The position numbers were made by a program, and so were the translations under genes. Of a stretch of DNA of 64,000 bases, positions 2 to 61,822 are shown piece after piece. The notes under the pieces are model-generated. The model did not search any database. It saw nothing but the letters and a program-made list of their open reading frames with translations, and was not told the DNA's origin. This stretch comes from a virus, in IMG/VR virus record IMGVR_UViG_3300047323_000675; one strand, given 5' to 3'. The stretch's first letter is position 1; every line of letters begins with the position of its first letter.

Positions 2-859
2 TTAAATTTTTAATCGTTTAGCACTTATCTTATCATCTTGAATAAGTAAATTATTAATTAACTGTTCAGCTAAATAGACTTGACTCAAAATTGGTTCTTT
101 AGCTATTTTTTCTTCAACTTCAGGATAATTATATATCTTAAAATTGTGAATTAAATGTTTAGCTAATTTAAAAAGTGATTCCTTTTCGTCAGGAAGGCTT
201 AGTGAACTAGTTTTAAATAAATCAAGAATATCAAATTCTTCATTAAGAGCTTTAACTAATAGTTTATCAAATAAATCTAACTTATCTAACATAAATACTG
301 TGATTAAATCTTCAAATTTAGTTTTTGGATGATTTTTTAATTCGTGAGATAGAAAAAGATATTCTATTAAATCCATGTTAGGTTCAAAATTATATAATGC
401 ATTTGTTAGTCCTGATTCTAGAACATCATGGGTTATGACAGCTTTGCCAAATTGTTTAGAAAGTATTCGATGATTGATGCCATTATCCTCACCTATAATA
501 TGTTGATATTTTTTATCAAATTCAACTAAATACTTCACTACTTCTATATGGTTATATGTACAAGCTTTAATGAATCCTGAAGCCGTAGCAATGCCACGAA
601 GATAGTTGTTTTCATGATTAAAACTAGATTTTTTTAAAGCACTTTTTACAAAATTAAAATTTCCTACTTGGCATATTTTAGTAAATATTGAGCTATAGTT
701 TTTATATTGTATATGTGTAGGATGATAATGGTCATAAAAAAGGTAAAATGGTGTTAATTCATTATTTAACAGTTTATCAAATTCAGCAATATTATTGTAA
801 CTCAATAATTCTATAACTTTATCTTTTAAATTCTCAAGTTTTTTATCATCTATATCCAT
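2..859 (-). CDS. divergent ankyrin-like protein with basic tail
   Basis: ICQVGNFNFVKSAL and ACTYNHIEVVKYLVE repeats; ends KRLKI. Confidence 0.7.
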   Translation of the reverse strand: MDIDDKKLENLKDKVIELLSYNNIAEFDKLLNNELTPFYLFYDHYHPTHIQYKNYSSIFTKICQVGNFNFVKSALKKSSFNHENNYLRGIATASGFIKACTYNHIEVVKYLVEFDKKYQHIIGEDNGINHRILSKQFGKAVITHDVLESGLTNALYNFEPNMDLIEYLFLSHELKNHPKTKFEDLITVFMLDKLDLFDKLLVKALNEEFDILDLFKTSSLSLPDEKESLFKLAKHLIHNFKIYNYPEVEEKIAKEPILSQVYLAEQLINNLLIQDDKISAKRLKI

Positions 860-876
860 ATTTATATCTGTTCTTT

Positions 877-1023
877 TTATTTAGTTTTTTTATGTAAAAG
901 ATTGGGTGAAAGTTTCTCACTTATTTTAGGTGATACCATGCCCTTCACAGCATCTAAATTGCCAGCCATACATTGTGAAATAAATTTGTTGCTTAGAGAC
1001 TCACTAATACTATTGGCATTTAT
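877..1023 (-). pseudogene. collapsed ankyrin-family remnant (48 codons, ATA at the likely start position)
   Basis: Hand translation: INANSISESLSNKFISQCMAGNLDAVKGMVSPKISEKLSPNLLHKKTK*; resembles the family N-terminal half-repeat joined to a basic tail; not in the ORF track. Confidence 0.55.
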
Positions 1024-1073
1024 ATTCTTACCTTTTATTTTAATTATACTAGAAATATTTATTTAATAACAGT

Positions 1074-1706
1074 TTATAGCTTTATTCTTTTAGTATCATT
1101 TTTATTCATAATTGGCTGACTATCAATTTCAGCCTTCAATCGCCTATATTCAAATAGTGTTTTTATATCTTTATCCCTTAAGATAATTCTTCTAATTTCT
1201 CTAGTAGGTTTAATTTTTACATTTAAGATAAGGTATTCGACCATATTTTTTTGATTATTTTCATAAGCTGCAAAAAATGCATTTTCTTGTGAGTTAAAAA
1301 AATCAATAGGCTTTTCTAATTCAGGAGATGCTAAAAAATATTTAACGATATCTATATGACCATTTTTACAGGCTACTAAAAACCCTGCTTTAATGGTTTT
1401 ACTCAACTGAATTGATTCAGGAGATGTTAATAAATATTGAACAATACCAAGATATCCTTTATTACAGGCATATATTAAATCTATGTGGGCATGATTTACC
1501 AATTCAGGAGATTTAGTTAAATATTTAATCATTATTGGATCATGCTGTGAAGCTATAAGTCCCTTATTTAAAAATTTATCATTATGTTTATGGTATTTAT
1601 TGACCATATATTTAATTGTAGAGAAATCACTATTTTTACAAGCTTCCAAGAATTTTTCTAATACTTTATCTGTATAATTGGCGAATATTTCGTTTAGTTT
1701 ATCCAT
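1074..1706 (-). CDS. ankyrin-repeat protein
   Basis: ACNKGYLGIVQYLLTSPE, ACKNGHIDIVKYFL; ends KRIKL. Confidence 0.88.
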   Translation of the reverse strand: MDKLNEIFANYTDKVLEKFLEACKNSDFSTIKYMVNKYHKHNDKFLNKGLIASQHDPIMIKYLTKSPELVNHAHIDLIYACNKGYLGIVQYLLTSPESIQLSKTIKAGFLVACKNGHIDIVKYFLASPELEKPIDFFNSQENAFFAAYENNQKNMVEYLILNVKIKPTREIRRIILRDKDIKTLFEYRRLKAEIDSQPIMNKNDTKRIKL

Positions 1707-1711
1707 ATTTA

Positions 1712-2566
1712 TTATAACTTCATTCTTTTAGGTGTTTTGGCAATTGAATTATCTTGATTACCATCTTTTAAATGTTCTCTTAAATCTCGCACATCAAAAA
1801 TTTTTTTAATAATATTTTTATATGCAATTTCATCTTTAGTGCTTAAATATTTTTGATTGGAATTATTTAAAAAATTTTCAATGATGGTAGTTTTAGGAAT
1901 ATTTAAATCTAAAATAAAATATTCAATAATTCCTTGAATCATATTTAAGTCAGAATATGGCTTTGTAGCTGCTAGTCCTAATTTAAATATCATTGATATT
2001 GTAAGATGATTGGGATCTCTATCTCTAACACTAAGTGCATTCATATAATCATTACAAACAGATAAAAATGCTTCATCACTTTCTAAATATAATTTAGTAT
2101 GTTTTTTAAGTTCAAGAGCAGATGTGCAAAACTTGATTAGATCAAAATTAAGAGTATTACATGCTAATATAAATACTTTATTTACAAATATATCTGCATG
2201 ATTTTCTAATTTAGGTGATGAAAGTAAAAATTTAATTATATTATTTTTTCTATTGATACATGTATCTCTAACCCAAAAATCACTTTCAATATGTATATTG
2301 TGGAAGGATTTCTTTGTATTAGGTGATGTTAATAAATATTCGACAATATTTAAATGACCTTTTTCGCAGGCATTTTCAAAAGCTAATTTTAAAACAGGTT
2401 TAATTAAAGATGTAATTTTTATTCTTTTAACATTTAATAAGTTATCTAAAGCTTTTAAATTACCTCGTTTACAAATTTCAGTTAAACTATTGAGATCATC
2501 TTCATTAAATTTTGGTTTTAAAAATCCTTTAAATATTTGTTTAAATTTTTCCATATCCATAATCAT
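1712..2566 (-). CDS. ankyrin-repeat protein, FKQIFK subfamily
   Basis: ACEKGHLNIVEYLLTSP; N-terminus MEKFKQIFK shared with 8543..9355; ends KRMKL. Confidence 0.88.
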   Translation of the reverse strand: MIMDMEKFKQIFKGFLKPKFNEDDLNSLTEICKRGNLKALDNLLNVKRIKITSLIKPVLKLAFENACEKGHLNIVEYLLTSPNTKKSFHNIHIESDFWVRDTCINRKNNIIKFLLSSPKLENHADIFVNKVFILACNTLNFDLIKFCTSALELKKHTKLYLESDEAFLSVCNDYMNALSVRDRDPNHLTISMIFKLGLAATKPYSDLNMIQGIIEYFILDLNIPKTTIIENFLNNSNQKYLSTKDEIAYKNIIKKIFDVRDLREHLKDGNQDNSIAKTPKRMKL

Positions 2567-2853
2567 AATTTAGGTTTTTTATTTTGCTTATCAACTTCGA
2601 AATTATTTAATTTATTATTTAATTCCGCATTCAAATCTCGCATTTCAAACAATTTTTCTATTGCAGGATTAGGGTAGGTTTTTAATAATTTTTCAATGTT
2701 TTTATTTTTTTCTATTTTAGCTTCAAGAATATAATATTTAATAACATCAAATTTTTTAGCATCTAATAAGTAATGAAATATGAGATTATTGTCTTCATGA
2801 AAATCAGGATGTTTATCCTGATCAATATAAATAGGTATTATGTTTTTTTTCAT
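2563..2853 (-). CDS. short ankyrin-family protein (last partial repeat plus C-terminal module)
   Basis: HPDFHEDNNLIF...YYILEAKIEK...FEMRDLNAEL; ends KKPKL. Confidence 0.65.
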   Translation of the reverse strand: MKKNIIPIYIDQDKHPDFHEDNNLIFHYLLDAKKFDVIKYYILEAKIEKNKNIEKLLKTYPNPAIEKLFEMRDLNAELNNKLNNFEVDKQNKKPKL

Positions 2854-2912
2854 ATGATTAATTTGTTCTTACTATTTATTTTATCAGATAGTAATTATTG
2901 TTTCAAATTTAA

Positions 2913-3629: not shown

Positions 3630-3636
3630 TATTATA

Positions 3637-7709: not shown

Positions 7710-8450
7710 TTATTTCTGCTTTAAATAACGGTTTACTTTTTCATAAGTATATAACTGCCAGCTAACATTATACCCTTGATTTTTCATTTTTTTAACAGAA
7801 TCAATAAAAAGATTATCCATAATTAGTTTATAGAAATAGATCGAATCATCTAAAGTTGGGCTATTTTTATTAACACTCATATAATCAGCTTTACTATTAA
7901 TTGCAGTAAAGGTTGATTCAATACTTTCAAAATATTCAAGATCTGAGCCATCAACAGCTTTAAGATATGGTAAAATATTGTAGGCAATAATATCGAAAAA
8001 ATAATAATCATTATAAGCAGCACCAGCAAAAATATAGCAATCAGATAGATTACTGATTTCATTTATATATTGGCGGATAGTTCCGTAATCCTTTGTATAG
8101 TCTGCGGCATTGTCATTAATAACATCTTCATTATAAATGATAATGGAATAGGGTGTGTTTTCAAATGAAAATTGAAGATAGTAAAAGATATCTTCAGGCT
8201 CATCATTGGCAATATCTTCAGATTGAAGCATTACCATTTTATTAAGGATATCTTTAACTTGTGCTAGTTTATAATGATGCACAAAATGGATATTAGCTGT
8301 ACAACAAGATGAGCCAATCAGATTATCAATTCCACCATTAAACTTAGTAAATTTTTGAAGAGAATCTAGAATAAAATTTTCTGTATTTTCTAAACAATGA
8401 ATAAAAGCATCTTTACCTGCAATTTTAGTCTGCACAGTAATCATTTTCAT
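7710..8450 (-). CDS. hypothetical protein (non-ankyrin, no basic tail)
   Basis: 246-aa ORF with GGAG Shine-Dalgarno upstream of the ATG; no family recognised. Confidence 0.75.
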   Translation of the reverse strand: MKMITVQTKIAGKDAFIHCLENTENFILDSLQKFTKFNGGIDNLIGSSCCTANIHFVHHYKLAQVKDILNKMVMLQSEDIANDEPEDIFYYLQFSFENTPYSIIIYNEDVINDNAADYTKDYGTIRQYINEISNLSDCYIFAGAAYNDYYFFDIIAYNILPYLKAVDGSDLEYFESIESTFTAINSKADYMSVNKNSPTLDDSIYFYKLIMDNLFIDSVKKMKNQGYNVSWQLYTYEKVNRYLKQK

Positions 8451-13233: not shown

Positions 13234-13563
13234 TTATGCAAAAATTAAATGAGTAAATAATTTAGAAAGAACCATGATTATTATTCCCAAAAAAAGACAA
13301 AATGAAGCCCATAAAACAGCAAGTTTACGATTTTTTGCCAAAATTGCGAGAGGAAATAAACCAAAAATAATAATTCCAATCCCAATTACAATAGACTCCC
13401 TTCCTTCTATTAAAATTTCCACATTATATCTAGAAGAATAAGCATAATAGCGATTATTAATAATACTTAATAAGCCTGGTAATGCAAAAGCAATACTCAT
13501 AAGAATTGTAAGGAATTTCACCAACGGGTTTACTGTGTTTTTTTTAACATTTGAATCATCCAT
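13234..13563 (-). CDS. small membrane protein, about 3 TM (non-ankyrin, no tail)
   Basis: Three hydrophobic stretches; AGGAG Shine-Dalgarno upstream. Confidence 0.75.
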   Translation of the reverse strand: MDDSNVKKNTVNPLVKFLTILMSIAFALPGLLSIINNRYYAYSSRYNVEILIEGRESIVIGIGIIIFGLFPLAILAKNRKLAVLWASFCLFLGIIIMVLSKLFTHLIFA

Positions 13564-17816: not shown

Positions 17817-19601
17817 ATGCAAACTACTTTAACTGCTTCTCTAATTGATGATTCTCATGCTGATTTTATTAATCAGAAATTAGATCAATTTAATACTTTA
17901 TTTAATAAAACTAAAAGAAATCTTTATAAAGATATTATTAAATTCTATAGTCAAAATAATACCAATAAGCTTTCTACCTCAAAGATTAATCAATTAAAGT
18001 CTTCTTATCAAACTATTTTTTGTATTAATTCTAGACATTACAATTCTATTTTTAATGACCTTTTGGGCAATATTAATTCTATTCTTGAACTTAATAAAGA
18101 CTATATTGTTGACACTAAAGATAATATTACATCTTTGTCTAAATCATTAAAATCTAAACAATCTATTTTAGATAGTCTTGTTAAGAAAATGTCTGCAAAA
18201 AATTATATTGAGAATAATATTGATAAAACCAATAAGGATAAGTTAGTTAATAAAATTTTCTATCTTAAAAAAAGATTAAATAAAGCTAATAATAAACTAG
18301 TTAAATTATTAGATATTGAAAAATCGGGTAATCCCCATTTATGTTTTGGTTCTAAAAAGTTATTTAATCAACAATTCATGATTAATACTAAAAATAATTT
18401 AACTTCATTTAAATTCCAGGAGGATTGGAAGAAAGCTTGGATTGAATCTAGAAATAGAAATTTTATTTTTATTGGCAGTAAAGATGAAACAGCAGGTAAT
18501 TCTAACTGTCAAATAAAACATATTGAAAATGATATTTATCAGGTAACTGTTAATGTTGATCCTAAAGCTACAAAACATAAAGATAAATATATTACTTTTA
18601 ATATCAAAGTCTATAATGATAAAAATAATTATCTTTTAAATTCTATCAATAACAATTCAGAGAAAGATAAATCTAAACATCAAGCTTTAACTTATAGATT
18701 TTATAAATATAATGGTAAATATCAGGTATTTATTAGTTTAGATAAAGATAATCAACAGCCCAAGATTATTAGTCATAGATTATCTGGAGCTATTGGTATA
18801 GATATCAATTCAGATCATTTATCTGTTTCTGAAATTGATAGATTTGGTAATTTAAAGAAGACTTGGAATATTCAACTTAATCTTAAAGATAAAACTACTG
18901 AACAATCTTTAGATAATATTGCTTGTGCTGTGAAAGAAATTACAGATTATGTTGTTAAAGTAGGTAAACCAATAGTAATAGAAAAACTTAACTTTAATCA
19001 AAAGAAATCTGAATTAAAGTCAGGATTTAATAAAAAATATAATGTAATGTTATCAAGCTTCGCCTATCGTAAGATAATAGAGTTAATTAAAAGTAGATCA
19101 TTTGACAAAGGTATTGAGATTATTGAGGTTAATCCAGCTTACACTAGTAAAATAGGCAAATTTAAATATCAAAACCAATATAAATTAACAACCCATCAAG
19201 CAGCTAGCTTTGTCATAGCAAGAAGAGGTTTATTGTCTTATGAAAAATATAAAAATATCAGAACAACTAAAATAAATAAAGAAACAAAAATAAAAGCAGA
19301 AATTATAGAAAGAAAGCCTGTAACAGTAGTACATAAAGAAAAACCAATTTCTAACCGTAGGAGTAAATATTATCCTTTTGGTTTACCTGTAAGGAATAGT
19401 CAAAAACAAGATGGTATTTATTGGAAAGAAATTGAGCAGAATTATCTCAAAGCGAAAAAGCATAGAATCGTACTGAAAAGGAAGAAACTTATCCTTGGCA
19501 ATAATGGCAGTAAATTATTATCAAGAGAAACAACTGTAGTAGCTGATAACTCTGAGGTAGACCGTGACCTATCCACAAATCTATTATTTCAACCTTTTTA
19601 G
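17817..19601 (+). CDS. tnpB: TnpB-family RNA-guided nuclease-like protein, 594 aa
   Basis: RuvC-I GAIGIDIN, RuvC-II PIVIEKL, NVMLSSFAY, VNPAYTSK; RuvC-III position reads HQAASFVIARRG. Confidence 0.85.
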   Translation: MQTTLTASLIDDSHADFINQKLDQFNTLFNKTKRNLYKDIIKFYSQNNTNKLSTSKINQLKSSYQTIFCINSRHYNSIFNDLLGNINSILELNKDYIVDTKDNITSLSKSLKSKQSILDSLVKKMSAKNYIENNIDKTNKDKLVNKIFYLKKRLNKANNKLVKLLDIEKSGNPHLCFGSKKLFNQQFMINTKNNLTSFKFQEDWKKAWIESRNRNFIFIGSKDETAGNSNCQIKHIENDIYQVTVNVDPKATKHKDKYITFNIKVYNDKNNYLLNSINNNSEKDKSKHQALTYRFYKYNGKYQVFISLDKDNQQPKIISHRLSGAIGIDINSDHLSVSEIDRFGNLKKTWNIQLNLKDKTTEQSLDNIACAVKEITDYVVKVGKPIVIEKLNFNQKKSELKSGFNKKYNVMLSSFAYRKIIELIKSRSFDKGIEIIEVNPAYTSKIGKFKYQNQYKLTTHQAASFVIARRGLLSYEKYKNIRTTKINKETKIKAEIIERKPVTVVHKEKPISNRRSKYYPFGLPVRNSQKQDGIYWKEIEQNYLKAKKHRIVLKRKKLILGNNGSKLLSRETTVVADNSEVDRDLSTNLLFQPF

Positions 19602-23603: not shown

Positions 23604-24167
23604 TTATATTTTATTTTTTGGTTTATCTATAGAATTAATAGGTAATTCTTTTTTAAGAGAATTATTTAATAGGTAACTTTGAAGTTTTTTATAATATTGC
23701 TGATAATCTTCCAATAAATAAACTGCGTTTCCATTATTACTCATATTTATTTCATTTATGACTTCTTTTATATTATCTTGTAATTGATAATCTCTGAATT
23801 CAAAAATCTTTTTATTTTTATAAAGAATATCAAGCCCAATATTCATTAAATCATTAAATACCTTTTCTTTTTCTTGAATAATACTAAGATTATAAACATG
23901 ATATATTGTGTTTTGAAAGAAGCGTTCGCTAAATCCATTAGCAATGTTAAAAAACTTAAGATATCCTTCTCCATTGTTTTCAATAGTTTGATCTATCAAA
24001 GATGCTGCAACTAAATAACTAAGATAATCTTTACTATTACTACCTAATGATGTATTAAATTCTGTAAATTTTTTATTAATACATTGATATATAAATATAC
24101 TTTCAACTTTTTTAAAATCATCTTTGGTAAGATAATCTTGAAATTCAAATAGTTCAAATGCTTTCAT
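23604..24167 (-). CDS. hypothetical protein (non-ankyrin) carrying the family C-terminal module
   Basis: No ACxxG repeats; ends YLLNNSLKKELPINSIDKPKNKI. Confidence 0.8.
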   Translation of the reverse strand: MKAFELFEFQDYLTKDDFKKVESIFIYQCINKKFTEFNTSLGSNSKDYLSYLVAASLIDQTIENNGEGYLKFFNIANGFSERFFQNTIYHVYNLSIIQEKEKVFNDLMNIGLDILYKNKKIFEFRDYQLQDNIKEVINEINMSNNGNAVYLLEDYQQYYKKLQSYLLNNSLKKELPINSIDKPKNKI

Positions 24168-25651
24168 ATTTTTAACCTTTTTGTATTGTTAGATGTATTA
24201 TGTCCTAAATCATTATTTAATTCGGCATATTCTAATGCTTTCTCCATTTTTAAAACACTTTGTTGTTGCTCTGGACTTAAGTAATTATTATATATAGAAT
24301 CAGTTTTTATTAATTTAATAAGTATTTCACCTGGCATAATTTTTTTATTATTTGGACTAATTAGCACTTCAATATCATTATTAACTAAGAATTGAGCAAT
24401 ATTAAACATTGCCTTACCATTACTACTATTATTTTGTGTTTTAATAATTTTTTCAAAGAAATTTGCTAAATAATGTGCGAAATTATTTCCTTCTTCGTCT
24501 TTAATTTGCCAATCAATATATTTTTTTTCTGACAGCTTTATTATTGTACTTTCTATTTCAGTTGTTTTACCTAAGCAAAATAAAGAGCAAACTGAAGAAT
24601 ATATTTTCAGATTATTTAACTCCTTATTTGTTTGATACCATTGATTAAGTATTGATGTATTATAATGAAATTTTTTTATAGCATTATTTTCTAAAAAAAC
24701 TTCAGAATTAGTTGAGTTTTTCATATCTCTATATACTTCATCTTTAATCTCTGAAACACTCCAAGAGTCACGAGCAGTCATAACAATATTCTGTTCTGTG
24801 ATTGGTTTAGCATTATAGTAAAGCTCAAAATCCTTCCAATTATTATTATGAAGGCAATAAGCCATCATTAATTCTTGAAAATTTTTGGAAATGGAATCAT
24901 TTTGAATATTTCTAACTAAAAAATCATTTAAAGTGCTATGTAATAAAGTGTCTGTTCCAAGTTCTTTACTAAATCTATCAAAAAAATTTAAATTTTTATT
25001 ATCATTAATTTTTAGATTAACTCTAGAAAAAAATGATAATAAGAAATTTTTAACTAATTTTTTTTCTTCTATTTTTTCTAGATATATTTTAGCAAACTCG
25101 TTAGATTTATTTGAATATATGGAATCAAAAATTGGCATATTATTTACCATATATAACGGATTATCTAATTTATCTAACAGTTTTTTTGCCAAATTTACTC
25201 TGCCTTTAATTCCAAAACGAGCAGCACAATGTTCTATTTGTTCTTTATCATTCAATAAATCCGTAGTTGTTTTTCCTGGGAAAAATTTTGCACATATCTC
25301 ATTCATTGTATTCAATATTTGATTATTTTTTATGTAATAAAACGCACACTGTACACCCATAGATGGTATTTCTGGTTTTATAAATAACCTTTCAAAATAA
25401 TAACTTGCTGAACGAGTGTTATCAAAAAATTCCTTAAAGCAAGCGGAAGCACCATATTCTATACAAGCTTTTAATGTGCAATCTAATTGAATATGAGGAT
25501 ATCTATCTAAATAAGCTTTAAAGGCATCTGGTTTATCATAAAAGAAAATTAAATCTAATGACTTAGGTATATAGGATAAATATTTATGTTCAGATGGAAC
25601 TGTTAATCCCAATTTTTGAGTGAATTGTTTTTCTTCAAAAGACATGTACAT
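24164..25651 (-). CDS. 495-aa helical hypothetical protein carrying the family C-terminal module
   Basis: No 35-aa repeats (only a weak ankyrin-like DEEGNNFAHYLA); ends YAELNNDLGHNTSNNTKRLKI. Confidence 0.8.
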   Translation of the reverse strand: MYMSFEEKQFTQKLGLTVPSEHKYLSYIPKSLDLIFFYDKPDAFKAYLDRYPHIQLDCTLKACIEYGASACFKEFFDNTRSASYYFERLFIKPEIPSMGVQCAFYYIKNNQILNTMNEICAKFFPGKTTTDLLNDKEQIEHCAARFGIKGRVNLAKKLLDKLDNPLYMVNNMPIFDSIYSNKSNEFAKIYLEKIEEKKLVKNFLLSFFSRVNLKINDNKNLNFFDRFSKELGTDTLLHSTLNDFLVRNIQNDSISKNFQELMMAYCLHNNNWKDFELYYNAKPITEQNIVMTARDSWSVSEIKDEVYRDMKNSTNSEVFLENNAIKKFHYNTSILNQWYQTNKELNNLKIYSSVCSLFCLGKTTEIESTIIKLSEKKYIDWQIKDEEGNNFAHYLANFFEKIIKTQNNSSNGKAMFNIAQFLVNNDIEVLISPNNKKIMPGEILIKLIKTDSIYNNYLSPEQQQSVLKMEKALEYAELNNDLGHNTSNNTKRLKI

Positions 25652-26387: not shown

Positions 26388-27938
26388 TTAAATCTTTATT
26401 TTTGCTTTTTTATTAAATTCATTATCGGTAGAAAAACTATATTCTACTAAATTATGTAATGTTTGCTTATATAAAATTTTCTGACTACGAGTTAACTTAG
26501 GGAAAAATATTCCATATGTTTTATTTTTTAATGTAGTTGCTCTATTAATACTTTGGACATGTCTAGCAAGTATTTCAGGAGTTTCAGTCCAATATCCCAG
26601 ATTAATATTTTTTTCATTAGCATGTTTAATTATTGTTTTCATATAAGGCGAAGTTCCAAAAAAGCCTCTACTTCCTTTAAATGGATTATTTAAATTACAG
26701 AAATTATTTTCTTCCAACCATTCTTTTAAAATTTTGCTAATTTTTTCTTTTGCTAAATTTTTATTATTTTGTATAGACTGAAGTTGTTCCTCATTTAACT
26801 TTAATGAAGAAATAAGACTCTTGAGTATATTGCTTGTTGGGGAAAAAAATGATTCCATATTAGCATTGATCATAGTAATGCCAGTTAACGCATAATATTT
26901 AAAATGATCTTTGATACTAGATACTAATTTTTCTTTTTTTTCAGAATCAAGATTATCTAGTTTAGATTTCAAATCACCTAATAATGAGGATAAAATTATC
27001 TCAGTAGAAGAATCAAAAAATAAAGATGATTTAGCTTCATAATTTTGAGAGATTTCTATTATTGACTCATCACTAACCATTTTAACTATAGTTTCTTGAA
27101 AATTATTTAAAAATTTATTGTTAAGTTTATTAATGTTAATATTATCTTTAAATAAATCCATTAATACAAAGCTAGATAAATAACCGTTTTCAAATGCTAA
27201 ATTTCTTTCTTTTGATGGCACAGAATACAATTTATTAAATGCAAGATGATCAAAAATATGTGTATATTCATGAATGAGTGACTCTAAAAACCAATATGGC
27301 TTATTAGGCTTTACTGTAAGAGTAAAATAACCATCATCATTATCTAGGCATGCTCCTTGTGACTCATTTGGAGTAAGCAAAGATGTACAATGTAGAGTCA
27401 ACTTACCATTTAAATTAATTTTTTCTTTTGATAGATTGAAATCTTTCATAAATTTAGTTAAAGATTTTCTTGTAAGTTTCGCCCAATAACTTACCTTATC
27501 CCAATTATCTGTTTTATGGATAATTATTGTTTGAAGATTAAAATCGTTTTTTAATTTATCAACTAAATTTATTGCGATATTTTTATCGCCTTTTAAAGAA
27601 ATAGGCTCATAATTTTTTATAGGGTTTTTCAATATTTTTTCTATTTCTATTTTAAGTACATTCATAATATTATTGTTTATAATATCCAATGTTCTTAAGT
27701 TATCAGAGACTTTCTGATTTTCTTCCTGAATATATATTTTTACATTTTTTCTAGTTTTTGATATACTCTTTTTAATTATCTTTAGATCCTCAATATTTTC
27801 TAAATTATCTAAGTTTGATTTCCATAAAGAAATTATTTCTTTGAAAAATAAATTGCAATTTGGAGAGCCAGAAATATAAATATCAAAAAAATCATCAATG
27901 AATGATTTTAAATAATTAATTTTTTCTTGAGTTATCAT
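26388..27938 (-). CDS. zincin-like metallopeptidase, LPD1 (large polyvalent protein domain 1)-like, with basic tail
   Basis: INLNGKLTL, LIHEYTHIFDH (HExxH) and YWTETPEILAR resemble LPD1 motifs (recognised from memory, no search run); ends KAKIKI. Confidence 0.65.
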   Translation of the reverse strand: MITQEKINYLKSFIDDFFDIYISGSPNCNLFFKEIISLWKSNLDNLENIEDLKIIKKSISKTRKNVKIYIQEENQKVSDNLRTLDIINNNIMNVLKIEIEKILKNPIKNYEPISLKGDKNIAINLVDKLKNDFNLQTIIIHKTDNWDKVSYWAKLTRKSLTKFMKDFNLSKEKINLNGKLTLHCTSLLTPNESQGACLDNDDGYFTLTVKPNKPYWFLESLIHEYTHIFDHLAFNKLYSVPSKERNLAFENGYLSSFVLMDLFKDNININKLNNKFLNNFQETIVKMVSDESIIEISQNYEAKSSLFFDSSTEIILSSLLGDLKSKLDNLDSEKKEKLVSSIKDHFKYYALTGITMINANMESFFSPTSNILKSLISSLKLNEEQLQSIQNNKNLAKEKISKILKEWLEENNFCNLNNPFKGSRGFFGTSPYMKTIIKHANEKNINLGYWTETPEILARHVQSINRATTLKNKTYGIFFPKLTRSQKILYKQTLHNLVEYSFSTDNEFNKKAKIKI

Positions 27939-28536: not shown

Positions 28537-29022
28537 TTACAATTTATGCTTTTTTCCTATATTTAAATTTTCTTTAAGTTCCAAACTTATTTCTTTTTTT
28601 AATTCTCGTTGTTGGAAAAAATATTCAGCTTTTTCAATAAACTCAACACAATCGAAACTTTTAGCCTCTTTATATGCCTTTTTATACCATGATAAATGTT
28701 CAGTAATTTTTTCTGTTTGTTGAATATTTAAATCAAAAATTAAATAAGTTAAAACTGATATATCTCGCCAAATACATAATATTCTAAAGGCTTCATCTTT
28801 ATGACTATGAATATCTGCATGATCTTTTAAATCTGAAGAGGATAAAATAAATTTAATTTTGTCAAAATCATTCTCATTCATTGCATCTATAAATGCTTCA
28901 TTTAACTCATCTTTAGTTAAATATTGACAGTGCTCACAATAATTATCAAATTCACTCATTTTATAGTTTTGCTTTCTTAATTTTACTTTTATCTTCCGTA
29001 GAAAGAGTGATTCCAAGTTCAT
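28537..29022 (-). CDS. ankyrin-family protein (real start probably ATG at 28959)
   Basis: HADIHSHKDEAFRILC; tandem paralog of 28961..29392; ends KKHKL. Confidence 0.82.
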   Translation of the reverse strand: MNLESLFLRKIKVKLRKQNYKMSEFDNYCEHCQYLTKDELNEAFIDAMNENDFDKIKFILSSSDLKDHADIHSHKDEAFRILCIWRDISVLTYLIFDLNIQQTEKITEHLSWYKKAYKEAKSFDCVEFIEKAEYFFQQRELKKEISLELKENLNIGKKHKL

Positions 29023-29392
29023 CTTTTAATAATCTTTTTTCTAATGCTTGATTAACTTGATCAATAAAGAAGACCTTTTTTTCTTCGCCATAATGTTTGT
29101 ACCAACCTCTAGCAGTTTCTAGATGCTCAACAATAAATTCAGTTCTTTCTATATTCATATCAAATATAAAGAAATTTAAAATCTCCATATTTCTTTTCCT
29201 GCATAAGATTCTAAAAGCTTCATCTTCATCATAATGAATATCAACATAATCCTGTAAGTATGGCGAAGTTAAAAGTAATTTTACATCCTCAATTCTTTCT
29301 TCTTCTACAGCTTTAAGAAATTCTCTATTTAATTGCTCAGGAGTTAATCCCTTACAATAACTTTTGAATAATTTCGGCATTTGTTTAACCAT
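28961..29392 (-). CDS. ankyrin-family protein (short)
   Basis: LLLTSPYLQDYVDIHYDEDEAFRILC; ends KKAKL. Confidence 0.82.
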   Translation of the reverse strand: MVKQMPKLFKSYCKGLTPEQLNREFLKAVEEERIEDVKLLLTSPYLQDYVDIHYDEDEAFRILCRKRNMEILNFFIFDMNIERTEFIVEHLETARGWYKHYGEEKKVFFIDQVNQALEKRLLKDELGITLSTEDKSKIKKAKL

Positions 29393-35394: not shown

Positions 35395-35949
35395 TTATCT
35401 AGGAATGCATGAACAAGGCCAACTAAACCAATAAACATCATTAGGAATACCAGTCATAATTAAATATTGGAAACCTTCTCCATACATAAGTGGATCATCC
35501 TCTTTTTTGAATCTAGCTTCCGCTTCCTCTAAAGAGGAAAAACTTCCAATATATTCATTCCAGGGAGTAGTGCTATTAGTTAATTCACTACGGTAAATAG
35601 AATACATGCCAACAGGAGGTGCTGGAGGAACAACAGTTCTATTAGGTGCTACAGCATGGGTATAAGGGTCAGATGGCTGTGTTGGACTCACTATAGGTGG
35701 TATTGGATTATCTATTACTGGTGGTGTTGGGTCAACAGGCATAGGATCAGGAATGACTATTGGCTCAAGTGGAGGAGGAGGTTGGGGAATTTCAACAGGA
35801 GTAGTCCCAACAGATGGTTCAGAAGGAATAGGGTTTTGATTTGGTGGAACAGTTTCAACAGGATTGGTAGTAGATGATTGTGTATCACCACCGCCACCAC
35901 CACAAGAAATCAATGATAAACAAAAGATACAAGCTAATACATGTTTCAA
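35395..35949 (-). CDS. proline-rich lipoprotein (non-ankyrin, no tail)
   Basis: Signal peptide with lipobox LIS-C followed by GGGGG; Pro-rich stalk; TTG start with GGGAG SD. Confidence 0.78.
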   Translation of the reverse strand: MKHVLACIFCLSLISCGGGGGDTQSSTTNPVETVPPNQNPIPSEPSVGTTPVEIPQPPPPLEPIVIPDPMPVDPTPPVIDNPIPPIVSPTQPSDPYTHAVAPNRTVVPPAPPVGMYSIYRSELTNSTTPWNEYIGSFSSLEEAEARFKKEDDPLMYGEGFQYLIMTGIPNDVYWFSWPCSCIPR

Positions 35950-37240: not shown

Positions 37241-37956
37241 ACTTTCACTTTCTTTTTAGATTCTATTACTTCATTTTGTTTAGAAGATTCAAGCTCCCGA
37301 TTTAATTCTCTTGATTGAAACATGCTTTCTGTAACTTTAGAAAAATTTCTTTTATGATTTTTAAGAACTAAATCAATTTCACTACTTTTCTCTATGTCCA
37401 TTTCAAAAATAAGATATTTTAATATTTCTGCTTGTTCTGTTTCCAAACAGCCTTTTACAGCTTTAGCTAAACTTTTAGGTAGATGTGTTTTTTCTTTAAT
37501 TCTATTATCATTTAAAAACCATTTTACTAAATCAAAGCTTCCATTATAACAAGCGGAATATATTGCTTCACAATCATCACCATTAATATTTGCATGTTCT
37601 TTTAAATCTGGAGAAAACAACAAATAATCTATTATTTCCATATGTTCATAATTAACAACTAGATTGATTGCACAATCATCCTTAGCATGAATATCAACAT
37701 GCTCGTTGATTTCAGTGGAAGTTAGTAAATACTTTACAATATTAATATTTCCTCGTTCACATGCGTCAAAAAAGCCTTGATAGTTGTTATAACTCACTTT
37801 AGCATGTTTTTTTAAATCGGAGGAAGTTAATAGATATTTCACTTTTTCTAAATCCCCATTAATACAAGCACGAATAAAAAGAAGACTTAAAAGGCTTATT
37901 GCTTCTTCCTTTTGGCTATCTCTTTCTACTTGTTTAATAAATTTTTCATCTATCAT
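37237..37956 (-). CDS. ankyrin-repeat protein
   Basis: ACINGDLEKVKYLL, ACERGNINIVKYLL; ends KKVKV. Confidence 0.92.
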   Translation of the reverse strand: MIDEKFIKQVERDSQKEEAISLLSLLFIRACINGDLEKVKYLLTSSDLKKHAKVSYNNYQGFFDACERGNINIVKYLLTSTEINEHVDIHAKDDCAINLVVNYEHMEIIDYLLFSPDLKEHANINGDDCEAIYSACYNGSFDLVKWFLNDNRIKEKTHLPKSLAKAVKGCLETEQAEILKYLIFEMDIEKSSEIDLVLKNHKRNFSKVTESMFQSRELNRELESSKQNEVIESKKKVKV

Positions 37957-38432
37957 AATTTAGGTTTTTTTATATTTTGGCTATCTGTAGTCAATTCATT
38001 GTTTAAATCTTTATTTACTTCGCGTAAGATGAACATATTTTTAATAGTTTCATTAAAGCTCTGACTAGATGTATTCAAATATTCTTTTATTGCAGGAGTT
38101 TCTTCTATATTATACTCAAAAATAAGGTATTGAAGCACTTCTGTGCTTCCACCATTACATGCATCTTTAAATGCTTGCTGTTCATTTTCGTAAATATTTG
38201 CATGTTCTTTTAAATTAGGTGAACTAAGAAAATATTTAACCATTTCAGGAAAGTTTGAGTTACAAGCAATACGCAGAGGCTCATTATCTGCTGTTAAGCT
38301 TGGGTGATACATTAATTCGGGTGAAGTTAGAAGATATTTAACGGCCTCCAAATTATTATTTGAACATGCCAACATAAAAAACATGTCTAGGTCCTCATTA
38401 GATGCATCTTTATATTGCTCAATAAAATTCAT
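37953..38432 (-). CDS. ankyrin-repeat protein
   Basis: PLRIACNSNFPEMVKYFL; ends KKPKL. Confidence 0.9.
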   Translation of the reverse strand: MNFIEQYKDASNEDLDMFFMLACSNNNLEAVKYLLTSPELMYHPSLTADNEPLRIACNSNFPEMVKYFLSSPNLKEHANIYENEQQAFKDACNGGSTEVLQYLIFEYNIEETPAIKEYLNTSSQSFNETIKNMFILREVNKDLNNELTTDSQNIKKPKL

Positions 38433-41048: not shown

Positions 41049-41603
41049 TTAAATTTTATCAGAATTTAATTCATATTCTAGATCACGGTTAAAACTTCTT
41101 ATTAAAAACATTTTTTTAACCATTTCTATAAATGGATTACTTCGATTGTTAAGGTAGTCAGCTATATATGGATTTAAAGATATATTGAAGTCAAAAATAA
41201 GATATTTTAAAACTTCAATTCTTCCTGAAAAAAGAGATGTAAAAAACACTGCATCTTTATATGAATGAACATCTACTCTGTTTGTTAAATCTTTAGATGT
41301 TAATAAATAATGAATTATTGACAAATGACCATTTCTACATGCACTTTTAATTGCGGAACTATTGTCAGCATAAATATTTGCATACTTCTTTAATTCTAAA
41401 GAAGTTAGCAGATATTTCACTAATTCTAAATGACCATTTTGGCAAGCATACTTCAAAGGAGAATCATTAAAACAATTTATGTTTGCATGGACTCTTAATG
41501 TAGAAGATGTTAATAGATACTTAACTTGCTCTACATTTCCCTCCTTACAGAATTTAAGTAATTTTAAATTTAACTTTTTTTGTTTTTGAATATCAAATCT
41601 CAT
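41049..41603 (-). CDS. ankyrin-repeat protein with shortened tail
   Basis: PLKYACQNGHLELVKYLL; ends ELNSDKI without the KKxK part. Confidence 0.88.
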   Translation of the reverse strand: MRFDIQKQKKLNLKLLKFCKEGNVEQVKYLLTSSTLRVHANINCFNDSPLKYACQNGHLELVKYLLTSLELKKYANIYADNSSAIKSACRNGHLSIIHYLLTSKDLTNRVDVHSYKDAVFFTSLFSGRIEVLKYLIFDFNISLNPYIADYLNNRSNPFIEMVKKMFLIRSFNRDLEYELNSDKI

Positions 41604-42300: not shown

Positions 42301-43329
42301 TTACAGTTTTAATTTGTTATTTTTCAATTCTTGATTAGTAGATATTTCATCATTTAATTCTTTATTAATTTCCCGCATATCAAACAATTTTTTTATTTGG
42401 CCATCAGTATCATATTCTTCAAGAAGGGATTTTATCTTAGTTGTTAATTTAATGCCATAATCAAAAATTAAAACATTTAATAAATCAAAATTTGTATTGA
42501 TGATTGCTGTAGTAAATGCACTATCATCATTTGCATGAATATCTATATTTTGATTATAATCTTTATGCATCAACAACATTTTAGTAAGATCTAAGTTATT
42601 ATTGCCATATGCTAGTTCTAAATGTGATTGAGTTATATTAAGTTTATAATAGTTGTTAATGTTTGGAGATTTAATTAAATATTGTATCATCTCTAAATCT
42701 CCTTTAACACAAGCTGTATTTAAAAGGTTTTCGCTAATTTTAGAAATATTAATTTGTTTATTATCTATAGAATTAATTAAATATTGTACAATATCCATTT
42801 TTGAACAATAACATGCTTGGTTTAATGCATTAAAATAATAATATTCGCTATACATTGAACTACTCCAAGCGAATTTTTCCATTTTTGGTTTGTGAAAGTT
42901 CAATAAGTATTGAACGACTTCTAAATAGCCATTTCTACATGCTATACAGAAGCCTTCATTAATTGTGAATTTATCACTATCTTTAATATCATTCAAAGTA
43001 AGAAAATACTTAATAATATTTAGTTGTCCAGAATTACATGCGGAATTAAATGCAGAAATCAATGGTTGAGAGCCAATTGTGTTTATCGAAAAAGAATGTT
43101 TACAATCATCAGATGAAAGAAAATATTTAATCAGATTTAGATGACCTCTAGAGCATACTAATCGTAATCCACGATCATTTTCACAATGAACATCGGCAGT
43201 GATTTTTAAATCATCTGAAGTAATTAAATATTTAACTTCGTCTAAATTTCCATTATCACAAGCATCTAAATATGCTTTATCAATCTTTGATGGTGAGAAA
43301 TTTTTAAATTTTTCAAATAAACTATTCAT
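42301..43329 (-). CDS. ankyrin-repeat protein (largest ankyrin member, 342 aa)
   Basis: ACRNGYLEVVQYLL, ACVKGDLEMIQYL; ends NKLKL. Confidence 0.92.
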   Translation of the reverse strand: MNSLFEKFKNFSPSKIDKAYLDACDNGNLDEVKYLITSDDLKITADVHCENDRGLRLVCSRGHLNLIKYFLSSDDCKHSFSINTIGSQPLISAFNSACNSGQLNIIKYFLTLNDIKDSDKFTINEGFCIACRNGYLEVVQYLLNFHKPKMEKFAWSSSMYSEYYYFNALNQACYCSKMDIVQYLINSIDNKQINISKISENLLNTACVKGDLEMIQYLIKSPNINNYYKLNITQSHLELAYGNNNLDLTKMLLMHKDYNQNIDIHANDDSAFTTAIINTNFDLLNVLIFDYGIKLTTKIKSLLEEYDTDGQIKKLFDMREINKELNDEISTNQELKNNKLKL

Positions 43330-57482: not shown

Positions 57483-57491
57483 ATTATACCA
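57483..57491 (-). promoter_or_regulatory. extended -10 promoter element (TGGTATAAT)
   Basis: TGnTATAAT in the 64-bp gap upstream of 57442. Confidence 0.45.
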
Positions 57492-57506
57492 AAAAAGAAA
57501 AAAATA

Positions 57507-58349: not shown

Positions 58350-58364
58350 TATTCTTGGAAATAG

Positions 58365-58751
58365 TTATAATTTAAATTTTTTATTCTCATAATCATTATT
58401 TGTCAAATTACAATTCAATTCTTTTTTTAAATCTCTAGTAATAAACATTTTACCAATTATTTCATCTTGTGATGTTTTAAGTATTTTATCTATATGTTCA
58501 GTTTTTTGTATATTCATATCGAAAATAAAAAATTTTAGAAGTTCTATATGATTATATAAATAAGCTTGTCCAAAAGGAGAATCCTGACCACAATGTATAT
58601 CAGCATGAAATCTGAATTCTGGAGTAGTTAATAAAATTTTTGCTTGGTCTATATTTCCACTAATACATGATTTAACTAAAGCATGATTTAGTTCATATTG
58701 ATTGAAATTTCTACATGATTTAATAAATAAATTTTTATTTTTTTTGTTCAT
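58365..58751 (-). CDS. ankyrin-family protein (short)
   Basis: SCISGNIDQAKILLTTPEF...HADIH; ends KKFKL. Confidence 0.82.
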   Translation of the reverse strand: MNKKNKNLFIKSCRNFNQYELNHALVKSCISGNIDQAKILLTTPEFRFHADIHCGQDSPFGQAYLYNHIELLKFFIFDMNIQKTEHIDKILKTSQDEIIGKMFITRDLKKELNCNLTNNDYENKKFKL

Positions 58752-59650
58752 TATAATTTAGGTTTCTTATTTTTAACACTATCTTTATTTTCTAAACTAA
58801 GCTCTTTATTTAAATCCCTGGTAATAAACCAAGTATTTATTTCTTTAAGATTATAGTCTTGGATATATTTTTCTATAAAAGAAGTTTTTTCTATATTATA
58901 TTCAAATATTAAATAATGAATAATATTCATATTTTTTTCTTCTATAGCACATATAAATGGTGAGTCACTATTATTATGAATATCTATATAATTTTTAGCT
59001 TGTGGTAAATTTAAAATATAATTAAGAGTATCTAATGCCCCTTCATAACAGGCATGGAATATTGCTTGATTTATACATTTATGAAGATTAATATTTTCTT
59101 TTAAATCTGAACTTTCTAAAACATACTTAGCAATATCTAAATGATTTCCAGCACATGCATAAATAAAAACTTCTTCGTTATTAGCATGAATATCAGCATG
59201 TTGTTTAAGTTCTTTAGATGTAAGTAAATACTTAACTATTTCTAAGTGTCCTCCATAACTTGCTTCAGTAAGTACAGATGGATTTATATTTGAATGCTTC
59301 TGAAGCTCATTACTAGTTAATAAATATTTCACTATATCTAAATATCCATTTCTGCATGCATTTTTTAAAGCTTGCTCATGACTTCCATTAATATCAGGTG
59401 GGTTATTAATCTTTGTAGAAGTTAATAAATATTTTACTATATCTAAATGACCATTTTCGCATGCTTGGTAAAGCCCATTAAAAGGTTCAACACTATTATA
59501 AATACGATTAGGTTCTGCATGAAATTTCAATATTGGATCATGTAAAACAAATTTAACTAATTCTAAATCTCCATTAATACATGCATTTATGAAGACATCA
59601 TTTATTTGTATTTGGTTTTTATTGGCATAAAAATTTTTATCAATTTTCAT
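58751..59650 (-). CDS. ankyrin-repeat protein (many repeats)
   Basis: ACENGHLDIVKYLL; N-terminus MKIDK shared with 59647..60534; ends KKPKL. Confidence 0.93.
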   Translation of the reverse strand: MKIDKNFYANKNQIQINDVFINACINGDLELVKFVLHDPILKFHAEPNRIYNSVEPFNGLYQACENGHLDIVKYLLTSTKINNPPDINGSHEQALKNACRNGYLDIVKYLLTSNELQKHSNINPSVLTEASYGGHLEIVKYLLTSKELKQHADIHANNEEVFIYACAGNHLDIAKYVLESSDLKENINLHKCINQAIFHACYEGALDTLNYILNLPQAKNYIDIHNNSDSPFICAIEEKNMNIIHYLIFEYNIEKTSFIEKYIQDYNLKEINTWFITRDLNKELSLENKDSVKNKKPKL

Positions 59651-60534
59651 AATTTAAGTCGTTTACTTTTATTTTCTTCCTGCGAGATAATTAATTCATT
59701 ATTTAAATTCTGTTTTAAATCTCTTACTTTAAACCAATTTTGAATTTCTATATTATCTTTAATAGACTCTTCAATTTTTTGATCTTTCTTTATGTCATAT
59801 TCAAATATAAAATATTTAACAATTTCAAAATTTTTATCTTGAATAGCTGTAATAAATTGCGAATTAATATCTACATGTTCATTAATATAAGTATTCTTTA
59901 AAAGATAATCCAATGCATCTACAGAACTATATCTTCGAACATTTGAGAAAATTTCTTTATAAGTAGAGGAAGTAATATTTTGTAATAAATCTGTATCTTC
60001 CAATAAGTATTTTGCAACATTTACATAATTATTTGCACAAGCTCTTTGAAATCCTATTACATACTTTTGTGGATCAACATGAACTTTAATATCGGGTGAT
60101 ACCAATAAATACTTAACTATTTCTAACTCTCCACTACCACAAGCAGAAATGAAAGAATTAGGATTTTCGAAAATGTCTATATAATCTACATTATCATCTG
60201 TAAGTAGGAATTTAACAATATCTAAATGACCATAAGCTGCGGAAGTAGATAAAGCTGCCCCAATCTCATTATCAGATCTTTTCGTATTCTTTAAATCCTC
60301 AGAAGTGAGAAGATATTTTGCAATATCTAAATGTCCATTTTTACATGCAATAATTAATGAATTAGAATATTCAAACTGTTTAGTAACATAATATTCTTTA
60401 GCTTTTAATGGTAAATCTTTATCAGTTAAGAGTAATTTAACCAAATCTAAATTACCATTTTCACATGCTTCTGCTAGAGACTCATTAAGTTCATCTTGGT
60501 TTTTATTTATATATAAACTTTTATCAATTTTCAT
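59647..60534 (-). CDS. ankyrin-repeat protein (many repeats)
   Basis: ACKNGHLDIAKYLL; ends KRLKL. Confidence 0.93.
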   Translation of the reverse strand: MKIDKSLYINKNQDELNESLAEACENGNLDLVKLLLTDKDLPLKAKEYYVTKQFEYSNSLIIACKNGHLDIAKYLLTSEDLKNTKRSDNEIGAALSTSAAYGHLDIVKFLLTDDNVDYIDIFENPNSFISACGSGELEIVKYLLVSPDIKVHVDPQKYVIGFQRACANNYVNVAKYLLEDTDLLQNITSSTYKEIFSNVRRYSSVDALDYLLKNTYINEHVDINSQFITAIQDKNFEIVKYFIFEYDIKKDQKIEESIKDNIEIQNWFKVRDLKQNLNNELIISQEENKSKRLKL

Positions 60535-60537
60535 GTT

Positions 60538-61125
60538 TTATAATTTTATTTTTTTTATGTTGTTTTTGTTTTCTATCACTGTTAATTCATTATTCAAATT
60601 TTTATTCAAATCTCTAAGAGTAAAAATTTGATCAATAGTTTCGTCTGGATTTTCGTGTAGAAAATTATTAATTTTTTCAGTTTTTTGTGCGCCCTCATCA
60701 ATAATAATAAATGAAATAACATGATAATGTTTATTGATAGCAGCCTGTATTAAAGAATCACTATAAATATCATTAAGATTAGGAATATTTTTTCCGATAA
60801 TTTCAAAAAAGTACTGAACTATATCAAGATGACCACCTAAACATGCTGATGTTAATCCACCATAATCATCTGAACTAATATCAATATTTTTTTCTAATTC
60901 TATTGATGAAACTAAATACTTAACTAATTCAATATTTCCGGCATAGCATGCCCATTGAAAACCTGTGAGTTCTATTGAAGAAATATTAGCATGGCTTTCT
61001 AATTCAGAAGATGTTAAAAGAAACTTAACAAGTTCTATTTCATTATTTTTACAAGCAGTATTTAAAGCTAAATTAAGCTGATTAATCGTTGAATCATGAT
61101 ATTTATCATAATAAATTTTTTTCAT
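60538..61125 (-). CDS. ankyrin-repeat protein
   Basis: GFQWACYAGNIELVKYL; ends KKIKL. Confidence 0.92.
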   Translation of the reverse strand: MKKIYYDKYHDSTINQLNLALNTACKNNEIELVKFLLTSSELESHANISSIELTGFQWACYAGNIELVKYLVSSIELEKNIDISSDDYGGLTSACLGGHLDIVQYFFEIIGKNIPNLNDIYSDSLIQAAINKHYHVISFIIIDEGAQKTEKINNFLHENPDETIDQIFTLRDLNKNLNNELTVIENKNNIKKIKL

Positions 61126-61129
61126 ATAT

Positions 61130-61822
61130 TCACATTTTCAATTTTTTATCTTGTAAGTTTCTAATATGTAACTCTTGATGTAGCTCATCATGAACATCTC
61201 TTAATTTAAACATTTTTTCAACTTCAGAATTAGGGTAAGTCTGCATTATGGACTTAATATGATCATTTTTATCAATATAATAATCAAATATAAGATATTG
61301 TAGCACATCTAGACTATTTCTTAGTGAAGCTAGTTTAAAACTATCATGTGTTGAATCATTTATATCAGGATGTATTTCTAAATCAGGTGATGTAAGCAAA
61401 TAACGAACAACCTCTACATGATTATTCTGACATGCTAACTGTAAAGCATAATTATTAGCATCAAGAATATCTGAATGCACTTTTAACTCGGGTGAACATG
61501 CCATGTATTTAACAACATCAATATGGCCATTCATACATGCAATTTGAAAACAATAATTATTACTTGCTGTAATATTGCAATGATCTTTTAAATCAGGTGA
61601 AGTTAATAAATACTTTACTATATTTAGTCGTCCATATTCACAAGCTTTTTCTAAAAAATATTCTTTATTAAAATGAATATCTATTTCATCTGCGTTCTGT
61701 ACAAATGGAGATTTAAAAATATATTCTATATCTCCAAGTGAACCTTTTGTAATTGCCACTGTTATCGCAGTATATAAGTCTGCGGCACTATATTCATCAT
61801 ATTTGCTAGGGTCATCTATCAT
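61130..61822 (-). CDS. ankyrin-repeat protein, first gene of the array
   Basis: ALQLACQNNHVEVVRYLL; ends KKLKM. Confidence 0.92.
   Translation of the reverse strand: MIDDPSKYDEYSAADLYTAITVAITKGSLGDIEYIFKSPFVQNADEIDIHFNKEYFLEKACEYGRLNIVKYLLTSPDLKDHCNITASNNYCFQIACMNGHIDVVKYMACSPELKVHSDILDANNYALQLACQNNHVEVVRYLLTSPDLEIHPDINDSTHDSFKLASLRNSLDVLQYLIFDYYIDKNDHIKSIMQTYPNSEVEKMFKLRDVHDELHQELHIRNLQDKKLKM

Follow-up and report, generated by a model that had tools for sequence, protein, structure and literature searches.

We analysed a 64,000-nucleotide stretch of DNA, the virus record IMGVR_UViG_3300047323_000675 of IMG/VR (the window), whose GC content is 25% and which carries 85 open reading frames (ORFs) on its minus strand between positions 2 and 61822, the same 85 on which an initial annotation had been based. 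The subject of this report is the C-terminal end that these ORFs share. As that annotation had claimed, 82 of the 85 end in a lysine followed by leucine, isoleucine, valine or methionine (K-[LIVM]; L in 47, I in 29, V in 5 and M in 1), an ending for which composition gives a chance of ∼2.4%, and the three exceptions (7710-8450, 13234-13563, and 35395-35949) are the ones it had named from the same ORF list. We refer to this ending, with the conserved residues that precede it, as the tag.

When the ORFs were clustered with their tails removed, 79 of the 85 grouped as a single ankyrin-like family, the members of which are 33% identical at the median of pairwise comparisons and 55% at most. The family has the paired-helix repeats of the Ank clan in an AlphaFold2 model (predicted local distance difference test (pLDDT) score of 93) and matches Ank profiles: gene 42301-43329 matched Pfam Ank_2 with an E value of 2e-33, and precomputed Ank matches exist for many members.

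The other three tagged ORFs (23604-24167, 24164-25651, and 26388-27938) are singletons without a Pfam hit, and their bodies did not match the family profile in hhalign. The tail was the sole stretch to align in two of them, and weakly so (E 0.0023 and 0.14); nothing meaningful aligned in the third. Against a profile of the tail, they scored 18.7, 21.1, and 16.9 bits, respectively, compared with a maximum of 10.9 bits among 107 untagged ORFs. The initial annotation had counted all three as non-ankyrin carriers. This held for 26388-27938, which is not ankyrin-like, and 23604-24167 is an orphan, but 24164-25651 probably represents an ankyrin-type solenoid that has diverged very strongly; its ESM Atlas neighbors are all Ank proteins (template modeling scores 0.45-0.53). 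It is 39% identical to its ortholog in locus L020, and the final five residues are K-R-L-K-I in both. To judge from its HEYTH motif, 26388-27938 may be a zinc metalloprotease effector; weak structural leads from this protein to SprT, M78, LPD1, and anthrax-LF-like metallopeptidase folds were also noted.

Anatomy of the tag and the level of its conservation

The tag consists of three parts. A Leu/Glu helix with the approximate pattern L-x-x-[ED]-L-x-x-x-L lies 13-25 residues before the C terminus; it is followed by ∼5-9 residues of disordered polar linker, in which N, S, and T are abundant, and then by a basic tip of the form K-[KR]-(an uncharged and mostly hydrophobic residue)-K-(L/I/V)-COOH. 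Counting back from the C terminus, lysine occupies position -2 in 82 of the 82 tagged ORFs of the window and position -5 in 65, and lysine or arginine occupies position -4 in 72. The tip reads [KR]xK[LIVM] in 72 of 82 and K[KR]xK[LIVM], which contains the K-[KR]-x-K claimed initially, in 56. Position -3 never holds K, R, or E and is hydrophobic in 47 of 82 tips, compared with 31% in the protein bodies. Position counts also bore out the helix and linker that had been proposed upstream: leucine is most frequent at -13, -17, and -21, with E and N in the intervening positions, E or D recurs at -14, -18, and -22, phenylalanine stands at -26 or -27, and a stretch rich in N, S, and K follows the helix. 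The charge of the tail, borne by lysine and with a fixed K-hydrophobic end, is +3 over the last 7 residues and +2 over the last 25; its acidic block has a median of 3 acidic residues at -8 to -25 and a net charge of -1.

AlphaFold2 models of an ankyrin member (pLDDT 93.2) and of a member of the DUF285 family described below (pLDDT 93.7) both end in a helix of 22-26 residues followed by 7-11 low-confidence residues. In the example listed in Table 1, the helix carries the motif F-x-x-R-[ED]-L-N-x-x-L-x-x-E-L. The first half of the tag helix, including the phenylalanine at -26, seems to cap the ankyrin domain and is modeled with high pLDDT. One ORF, 41049-41603, stops early at L-N-S-D-K-I, right after the helix and without the basic tip, as if truncated.

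The codons of the tag vary. The last tagged residue is specified by 11 different codons, and the lysine at -2 is specified by AAA in 67 ORFs and AAG in 15, a ratio resembling that of the bodies (1393:221). Fifty stop codons overlap the start codon that follows, in 45 cases as ATGA, an arrangement that could favor last codons ending in A. Among the 34 genes without a stop/start overlap, 31 are tagged and the other three are the untagged ORFs, so that the tagged genes without an overlap (31 of 31) keep the tag. We also compared 36 reciprocal-best pairs with a related metagenome organism, all selected for a K-[LIVM] end in both members, and found the bodies to be 50% identical, the helix plus linker 42%, and the tip 63%. 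The evidence points to conservation of the tag at the protein level, independently of the ATGA overlaps; conservation at the DNA level only, which the initial annotation had named as a finding that would speak against it, was not found. As a side observation on gene overlap, the family genes 28537-29022 and 28961-29392 overlap by 62 bases, compared with the usual 4.

Distribution beyond the window and replacement in a related lineage

A Logan contig of the same organism, SRR26075501_674685 (101,898 bp), was followed past the end of the window. K-[LIVM] ends occur in 21 of its 70 non-array ORFs (2.4% expected; p 1e-17), all 21 with K or R at -4 or -5. The pattern L-x-x-[ED]-hydrophobic lies between -30 and -8 in 14 of the 21 tagged non-array ORFs compared with 2 of the 49 untagged ones (p 6e-8), and the linkers are 57% polar in the former and 30% in the latter. 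These tagged ORFs lie on both strands, encode 168-553 residues, and are orphans from several families. The tag in these flanking ORFs was tested by position-anchored counts; the tail profile was built from the ankyrin family and can tell tagged and untagged ORFs apart solely in that family or close to it. Tails of flanking ORFs outside the family score ∼0 bits with it, indicating that the families share a pattern and not demonstrably a homologous domain.

Related loci were collected by a pattern scan of JGI and NCBI metagenomes with an alignment of the ankyrin family, which yielded 46 loci in which 161 of 256 ORFs are tagged. The carriers there include 27 of 28 members of a DUF285/BspA-type leucine-rich repeat (LRR) family and one DUF4116 repeat protein. 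A NADAR protein in these loci also ends in K-M and scores 0 bits with the tail profile; this end may be due to chance. At L056:10762-13019, three tandem paralogs form a new orphan family (N terminus M-N-I-N-E-K-F-L-L) with the tail ...L-I-L-D-V-E-L-D...K-x-S-K-P-K-L, a variant of its own, which suggests that each family keeps the pattern while its tail sequence drifts. A search of 1.84 billion proteins with the tail profile returned 163 cluster representatives at E<=1e-3, only 13 of the matches being the window's own proteins. The best 150 of the 163 all end in K-[ILVM] (KI 63, KL 54, KV 32, and KM 1), and all but ∼7 of these 150 match at the terminus, those ∼7 stopping 2-6 residues short.

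The distribution is selective. The initial annotation had held that equal occurrence of the tail on housekeeping genes would count against it, and this was not found: the tag is on no recognizable housekeeping or structural protein of this organism's contigs (IF3, DNA methylase, SLT, RecX, NUDIX, Q_salvage, an AAA protein, metallophosphatase, the pilus cluster described below, porin, Suv3-type helicase, and malonyl-CoA decarboxylase). It is absent from CysS, GrpE, DnaK, and DnaJ of a relative; the IF3 of one relative ends in K-M, which we take as chance. A Sec-like N terminus was found in 2 of 233 tagged proteins compared with 11 of 101 untagged ones (p 6e-5), and the only ankyrin protein with a signal peptide (L059:11145-12182) is untagged. 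Taken together, these data show that the tag is a protein-level feature, clearly portable across folds outside the window and selectively placed on effector-like proteins. The initial claim that unrelated proteins carry it is weak from the window alone, where 79 of the 82 tagged genes belong to one family, and was established by the flanking ORFs and the DUF285 and DUF4116 proteins outside it.

The tail has been exchanged in a related lineage. Twenty members of the same ankyrin family (repeat Y-L-L-T-S-P-E-L), on 11 contigs with a GC content of 30-35% (loci L006, L009, L013, L019, L024, L025, L026, L030, L031, L033, and L048), carry an acidic tail that ends in E-L-F-(L/I/V) and has a net charge of -5 over the last 25 residues. 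The acidic and K-hydrophobic tails never occur on one contig, though both were found in the same metagenome. Such wholesale replacement of the tail on an unchanged family argues for an address that is read by a lineage-specific partner.

The organism and its genomic setting

The IF3 encoded next to the array has relatives that are 53-91% identical, in metagenomes only; scans of the searchable species genomes with IF3 found no relative, indicating that the lineage is not among the species genomes searched. One relative, with an IF3 72% identical, was seen in 39 blocks of the collection and has a syntenic neighborhood. Its DnaK is 75-77% identical to those of Gallionella and Sideroxydans and 80% identical to that of a "Betaproteobacteria bacterium," and a Porin_4 gene agrees with this placement. 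By sequence comparison, the organism is a divergent AT-rich betaproteobacterial lineage, and its effector-like repertoire suggests that it is probably intracellular. A stand-alone sdhB without an upstream sdhA was also observed on the contig of another relative (L028:6590-7294); its product is 85-90% identical to SdhB of Comamonadaceae, and the gene has only 36% GC in a contig of 25-33% GC. Either the gene was inherited vertically within the Betaproteobacteria and has drifted fully toward AT, or it was transferred long ago.

At the site of the array, the relative with the 72% identical IF3 holds one family gene (ending in N-K-N-K-L-K), followed by CysS or by GrpE-DnaK-DnaJ (L054:11278-11778 and L055:11278-20171), and the same glycine-zipper gene that adjoins the array (61945..62433) flanks the single gene. 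The 62-kb array is thus a lineage-specific expansion, and it shows how fast an effector repertoire can grow where a relative has a single family gene.

IF3, the porin, the pilus, RecX, and the chaperone synteny show that the region is a bacterial chromosome, and the ∼130 kb of this organism's sequence that could be read showed no genes for a capsid or for other phage structures. The suggestion in the initial annotation that the tail might serve virion packaging was accordingly dropped. A cluster for a mannose-sensitive hemagglutinin (MSHA)-type type IV pilus, which looks complete, lies ∼45 kb from the array and is followed by the Porin_4 gene. Eukaryote-type genes in the flanks encode a Suv3-like helicase, a malonyl-CoA decarboxylase, and a queuosine-salvage protein (L059:12241-14493, L059:19166-20626, and L051:2965-3849, respectively), all untagged. 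Inside the array, the plus-strand gene 17817-19601 fills a 2285-bp gap; its sole match, the TNB domain of Cas12f1/TnpB (PF07282, E 0.0087), was under the cut-off, and it is probably a gene of a transposon-borne mobile element. A 46-amino acid ORF adjoins it in the Logan gene calls. Coordinates of the features are collected in Table 1.

Table 1. Features of the array, its flanks, and the example tag
Feature	Position	Strand	Description
ORF array	2..61822	-	85 ORFs; 79 of one ankyrin-like family; 82 tagged
Untagged orphan inside array	7710..8450	-	ends ...Y-L-K-Q-K
Untagged small membrane protein	13234..13563	-	hydrophobic segments
Large plus-strand gene, sole one in array, splits array	17817..19601	+	594 aa, untagged
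Tagged 187-aa orphan	23604..24167	-	tail alone aligns to family profile
Tagged 495-aa protein	24164..25651	-	no Pfam hit
Tagged protein outside family	26388..27938	-	516 aa; HEYTH motif at residue 223; ends K-A-K-I-K-I
Untagged lipoprotein	35395..35949	-	signal peptide with lipobox L-I-S-C; Pro-rich
Example linker end and basic tip	37956..37976	-	residues 153-159, ...I-K-K-P-K-L; non-helical; last block pLDDT 66
Example tag helix	37977..38054	-	residues 127-152 of gene 37953-38432; AlphaFold2 model mf75d17dc8fed, pLDDT 89-97
Glycine-zipper protein, 17-kDa antigen type	61945..62433	+	signal peptide, untagged; adjoins array
infC (IF3)	62998..63549	-	untagged housekeeping control adjoining array
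MSHA-type type IV pilus cluster	L058:7503-20420		secretin, MshE ATPase, T2SSF platform, DUF6701 MshQ-like protein, four prepilin-like genes

The tag as a candidate export signal

We consider it somewhat probable that the tail directs export or translocation, as a C-terminal signal that is portable, is specific to the lineage, and marks the effector repertoire of this AT-rich, probably intracellular betaproteobacterium. A cytoplasmic receptor of the secretion machine would bind the free flexible tip together with the acidic helix and would hand the tagged protein to a channel without a Sec signal; the likeliest receptor would be a coupling component of a type IV system, either a complex like DotL/DotM or a protein of the VirD4 type. 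That a secretion machine reads the tag, and which machine this is, we infer. The initial annotation had seen in the tail a mark of cargo for a translocation machine encoded elsewhere on the replicon; the tail does behave as a portable, selective, protein-level address tag resembling C-terminal type IV signals, but no translocation machine was found in the ∼130 kb.

Several points weigh against an export signal. The check for neighboring type I or type IV secretion or capsid genes that had been proposed initially found none, and no type IV, type I, or type III secretion genes were seen anywhere in the ∼130 kb; the sole export-type machine there is the MSHA-type pilus cluster, the substrates of which would have to carry their signals at the N terminus. 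Unlike the disordered Glu-rich signals of Legionella, the tag has an acidic block that is weak and predicted to be helical, and the invariance of the lysine at -2 is far stricter than in any described type IV signal. To our knowledge, no betaproteobacterium is known to inject effectors through a type IVB system. In addition, 56 of the 82 tips fit a eukaryotic nuclear localization consensus. A variant that we regard as rather unlikely is that the free K-hydrophobic carboxyl end is read by an undescribed dedicated receptor, for example a C-terminus-clasping adaptor, of a secretion route for which no such signal has been described so far. In that case, tag and receptor would have changed together between related lineages, toward a basic tip in one and an acidic tip in the other, and the tag would be a near-deterministic "effector barcode" and not a form of the degenerate type IV signals.

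The nuclear localization consensus raises another explanation, which we judge unlikely: the tip could be a host-cell sorting signal that acts after delivery, with secretion specified elsewhere. It might be a c-Myc-type monopartite nuclear localization signal (NLS; K-K/R-x-K/R, bound by importin-alpha) or a free C-terminal ligand of Pex5, resembling the peroxisomal targeting signal type 1 (PTS1) as x-K-L, or of a PDZ domain. The carriers are eukaryote-like repeat proteins, as such sorting would have it, and K-[KR]-x-[KR] is present in 68% of the tips; however, the four-residue NLS is absent from 26 of 82, the invariant part is K-hydrophobic-COOH, and nearly all profile matches lie at the extreme end, where an NLS need not be. 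A lysine at -2 with L, I, or M at -1 fills the two strongest PTS1 positions, and the present tail has upstream basic residues and a flexible polar linker, which are described as PTS1 enhancers (PMC9542071). The canonical PTS1, [SAC]-[KRH]-[LM]-COOH, was nevertheless rejected, as 5 of 82 tips fit it and S, A, or C stands at -3 in 8 of 82 compared with 14% in the bodies, bulky hydrophobic residues dominating there. A PDZ ligand would agree with the 47 of 82 tips that fit hydrophobic-x-hydrophobic-COOH. Dilysine signals for retrieval to the endoplasmic reticulum (KKxx or KxKxx-COOH) were also considered and rejected, being found in 0 of 82 tips, with K never at -3. Whichever host reader is assumed, a single organelle address on at least a third of the genes, in many families, is hard to rationalize, the acidic tail of the sister lineage fits no such host signal, and the conserved helix is left unexplained.

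It is more doubtful still that the tail acts inside the bacterium or the protein itself without any addressing, as a degron for Clp, Lon, or Tsp, as a handle for a chaperone or for oligomerization, or as a membrane- or nucleic acid-binding patch. Reading of free hydrophobic C termini is known from bacterial proteases and PDZ proteins (ssrA by ClpX, and Tsp), and both the apparent capping of the ankyrin domain by the first half of the helix and the lack of a secretion machine in the ∼130 kb would suit an internal role. A structural cap, however, would not be common to ankyrin, LRR-type, DUF4116, HExxH, and orphan folds, a degron leaves the near exclusion of Sec-type proteins and the effector-like restriction unexplained, and the tail swap between lineages on one family points to co-evolution with one dedicated reader. 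We hold it improbable that the tail serves type I secretion, with recognition by an ATP-binding cassette (ABC) transporter that works with a membrane fusion protein (MFP) and TolC, as has been shown for ankyrin proteins in Orientia and Ehrlichia. Certain type I substrates do depend on an exact motif at the C terminus (Erwinia PrtG), and the present tail joins a helix with a terminal motif. There is also the precedent of rickettsial ankyrin proteins, which use uncleaved C-terminal type I signals (PMC4315096). By the composition criteria taken from that paper, a type I signal was rejected: over the last 60 residues, KHPMWC make up 22% and are not depleted, the isoelectric point is 8.2 and thus not acidic, and LDAVTSIF make up 47% compared with 52% in the bodies. 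The proteins moreover contain a median of 5 Cys, and no ABC or MFP genes were seen adjoining the arrays. Scarcely credible, and already largely refuted, is the explanation that paralogy or a DNA-level constraint (such as an A-rich coupling sequence before the next ATG) gave rise to the tail as a by-product, or else that it is a signal for loading into phage particles. The 79 paralogs among the tagged genes and the ATGA overlaps would favor a by-product, but the tag occurs on both strands and in unrelated families, and the paralogs are ∼33% identical while the lysine at -2 is 100% conserved; DNA-level conservation or translational coupling was rejected on the codon variation and the retention of the tag without overlaps, and phage packaging on the lack of phage genes in the ∼130 kb. 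Sorting of the sortase or exosortase type was rejected as well, as the tail contains no hydrophobic segment and a leader at the N terminus is lacking.

We found no description of a K-x-K-L tag in the literature. The natural swap of basic and acidic tails on one family offers a test of signal-receptor co-evolution, an idea raised for DotM (PMC5802825). C-terminal secretion signals of intracellular bacteria are usually degenerate, and effectors are guessed by machine learning; the present signal is almost deterministic, so that the whole effector repertoire of the lineage could be read from sequence. The tagged share is apparently at least a third of the genes in the regions seen.

Among known signals, those of VirB/D4 (type IVA) systems, such as Agrobacterium VirF, VirE2, and VirE3 and the Bartonella Bep tails, are Arg-based and loosely spaced. 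They resemble the present tail, in which lysine carries the charge, in being C-terminal, unstructured, and net positive, in lacking a Sec signal, and in being read by a coupling protein, as we propose here; but their last two residues are not fixed, they lack a conserved helix, and no virD4 or virB genes were seen here in the ∼130 kb. The type I signals of Orientia and Ehrlichia share with it the setting of an intracellular bacterium with a large ankyrin repertoire and an uncleaved C-terminal signal (PMC4315096, PMC3417381), but they have no conserved motif, whereas the present tail is Lys-rich and basic. Candidatus Ichthyocystis, an intracellular betaproteobacterial pathogen of fish, is likewise a lineage of reduced GC content with tandem family arrays; its fast-diverging families, one of which includes ankyrin repeats, make up about a third of the genome (PMC4943182). 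No shared C-terminal tag is described there, however, and most of the families are predicted type III effectors (PMC4943182).

The Dot/Icm (type IVB) signals of Legionella and Coxiella, of the E-block class and including the "OSS" peptide, come closest to the present tag among the described signals. C-terminal Glu-rich signals of this type are read by DotM; a consensus peptide ends in S-L-K-L, a change of L to E at the extreme end abolishes transport, and DotM has been proposed to co-evolve with differently charged tails (PMC5802825). Both kinds of signal lie in the last 25-35 residues and combine a polar linker with a hydrophobic residue at the extreme C terminus; acidic residues stand ∼10-20 positions from the end in both, though few of them in the present tail. 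The carriers, too, are alike, with hundreds of unrelated effectors of eukaryote-like type in each case and many ankyrin proteins among them. In our data, the module lies within the last ∼30 residues, the last residue is L, I, V, or M in 82 of 82 tagged proteins of the window, and 231 of 233 tagged proteins are without a Sec-like N terminus. The present tag differs in its strongly basic tip (K at -5, -4, and -2), its weak helical acidic block, and its invariant lysine at -2, where the Legionella signals are degenerate; in addition, it comes from a betaproteobacterium, and the ∼130 kb showed no dot/icm genes. The acidic E-L-F-hydrophobic tail of the sister lineage fits the Dot/Icm class well, even better than the basic one. 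Short of proven membership, the basic-tipped tail resembles the type IVB signals, on which it would be a new variation.

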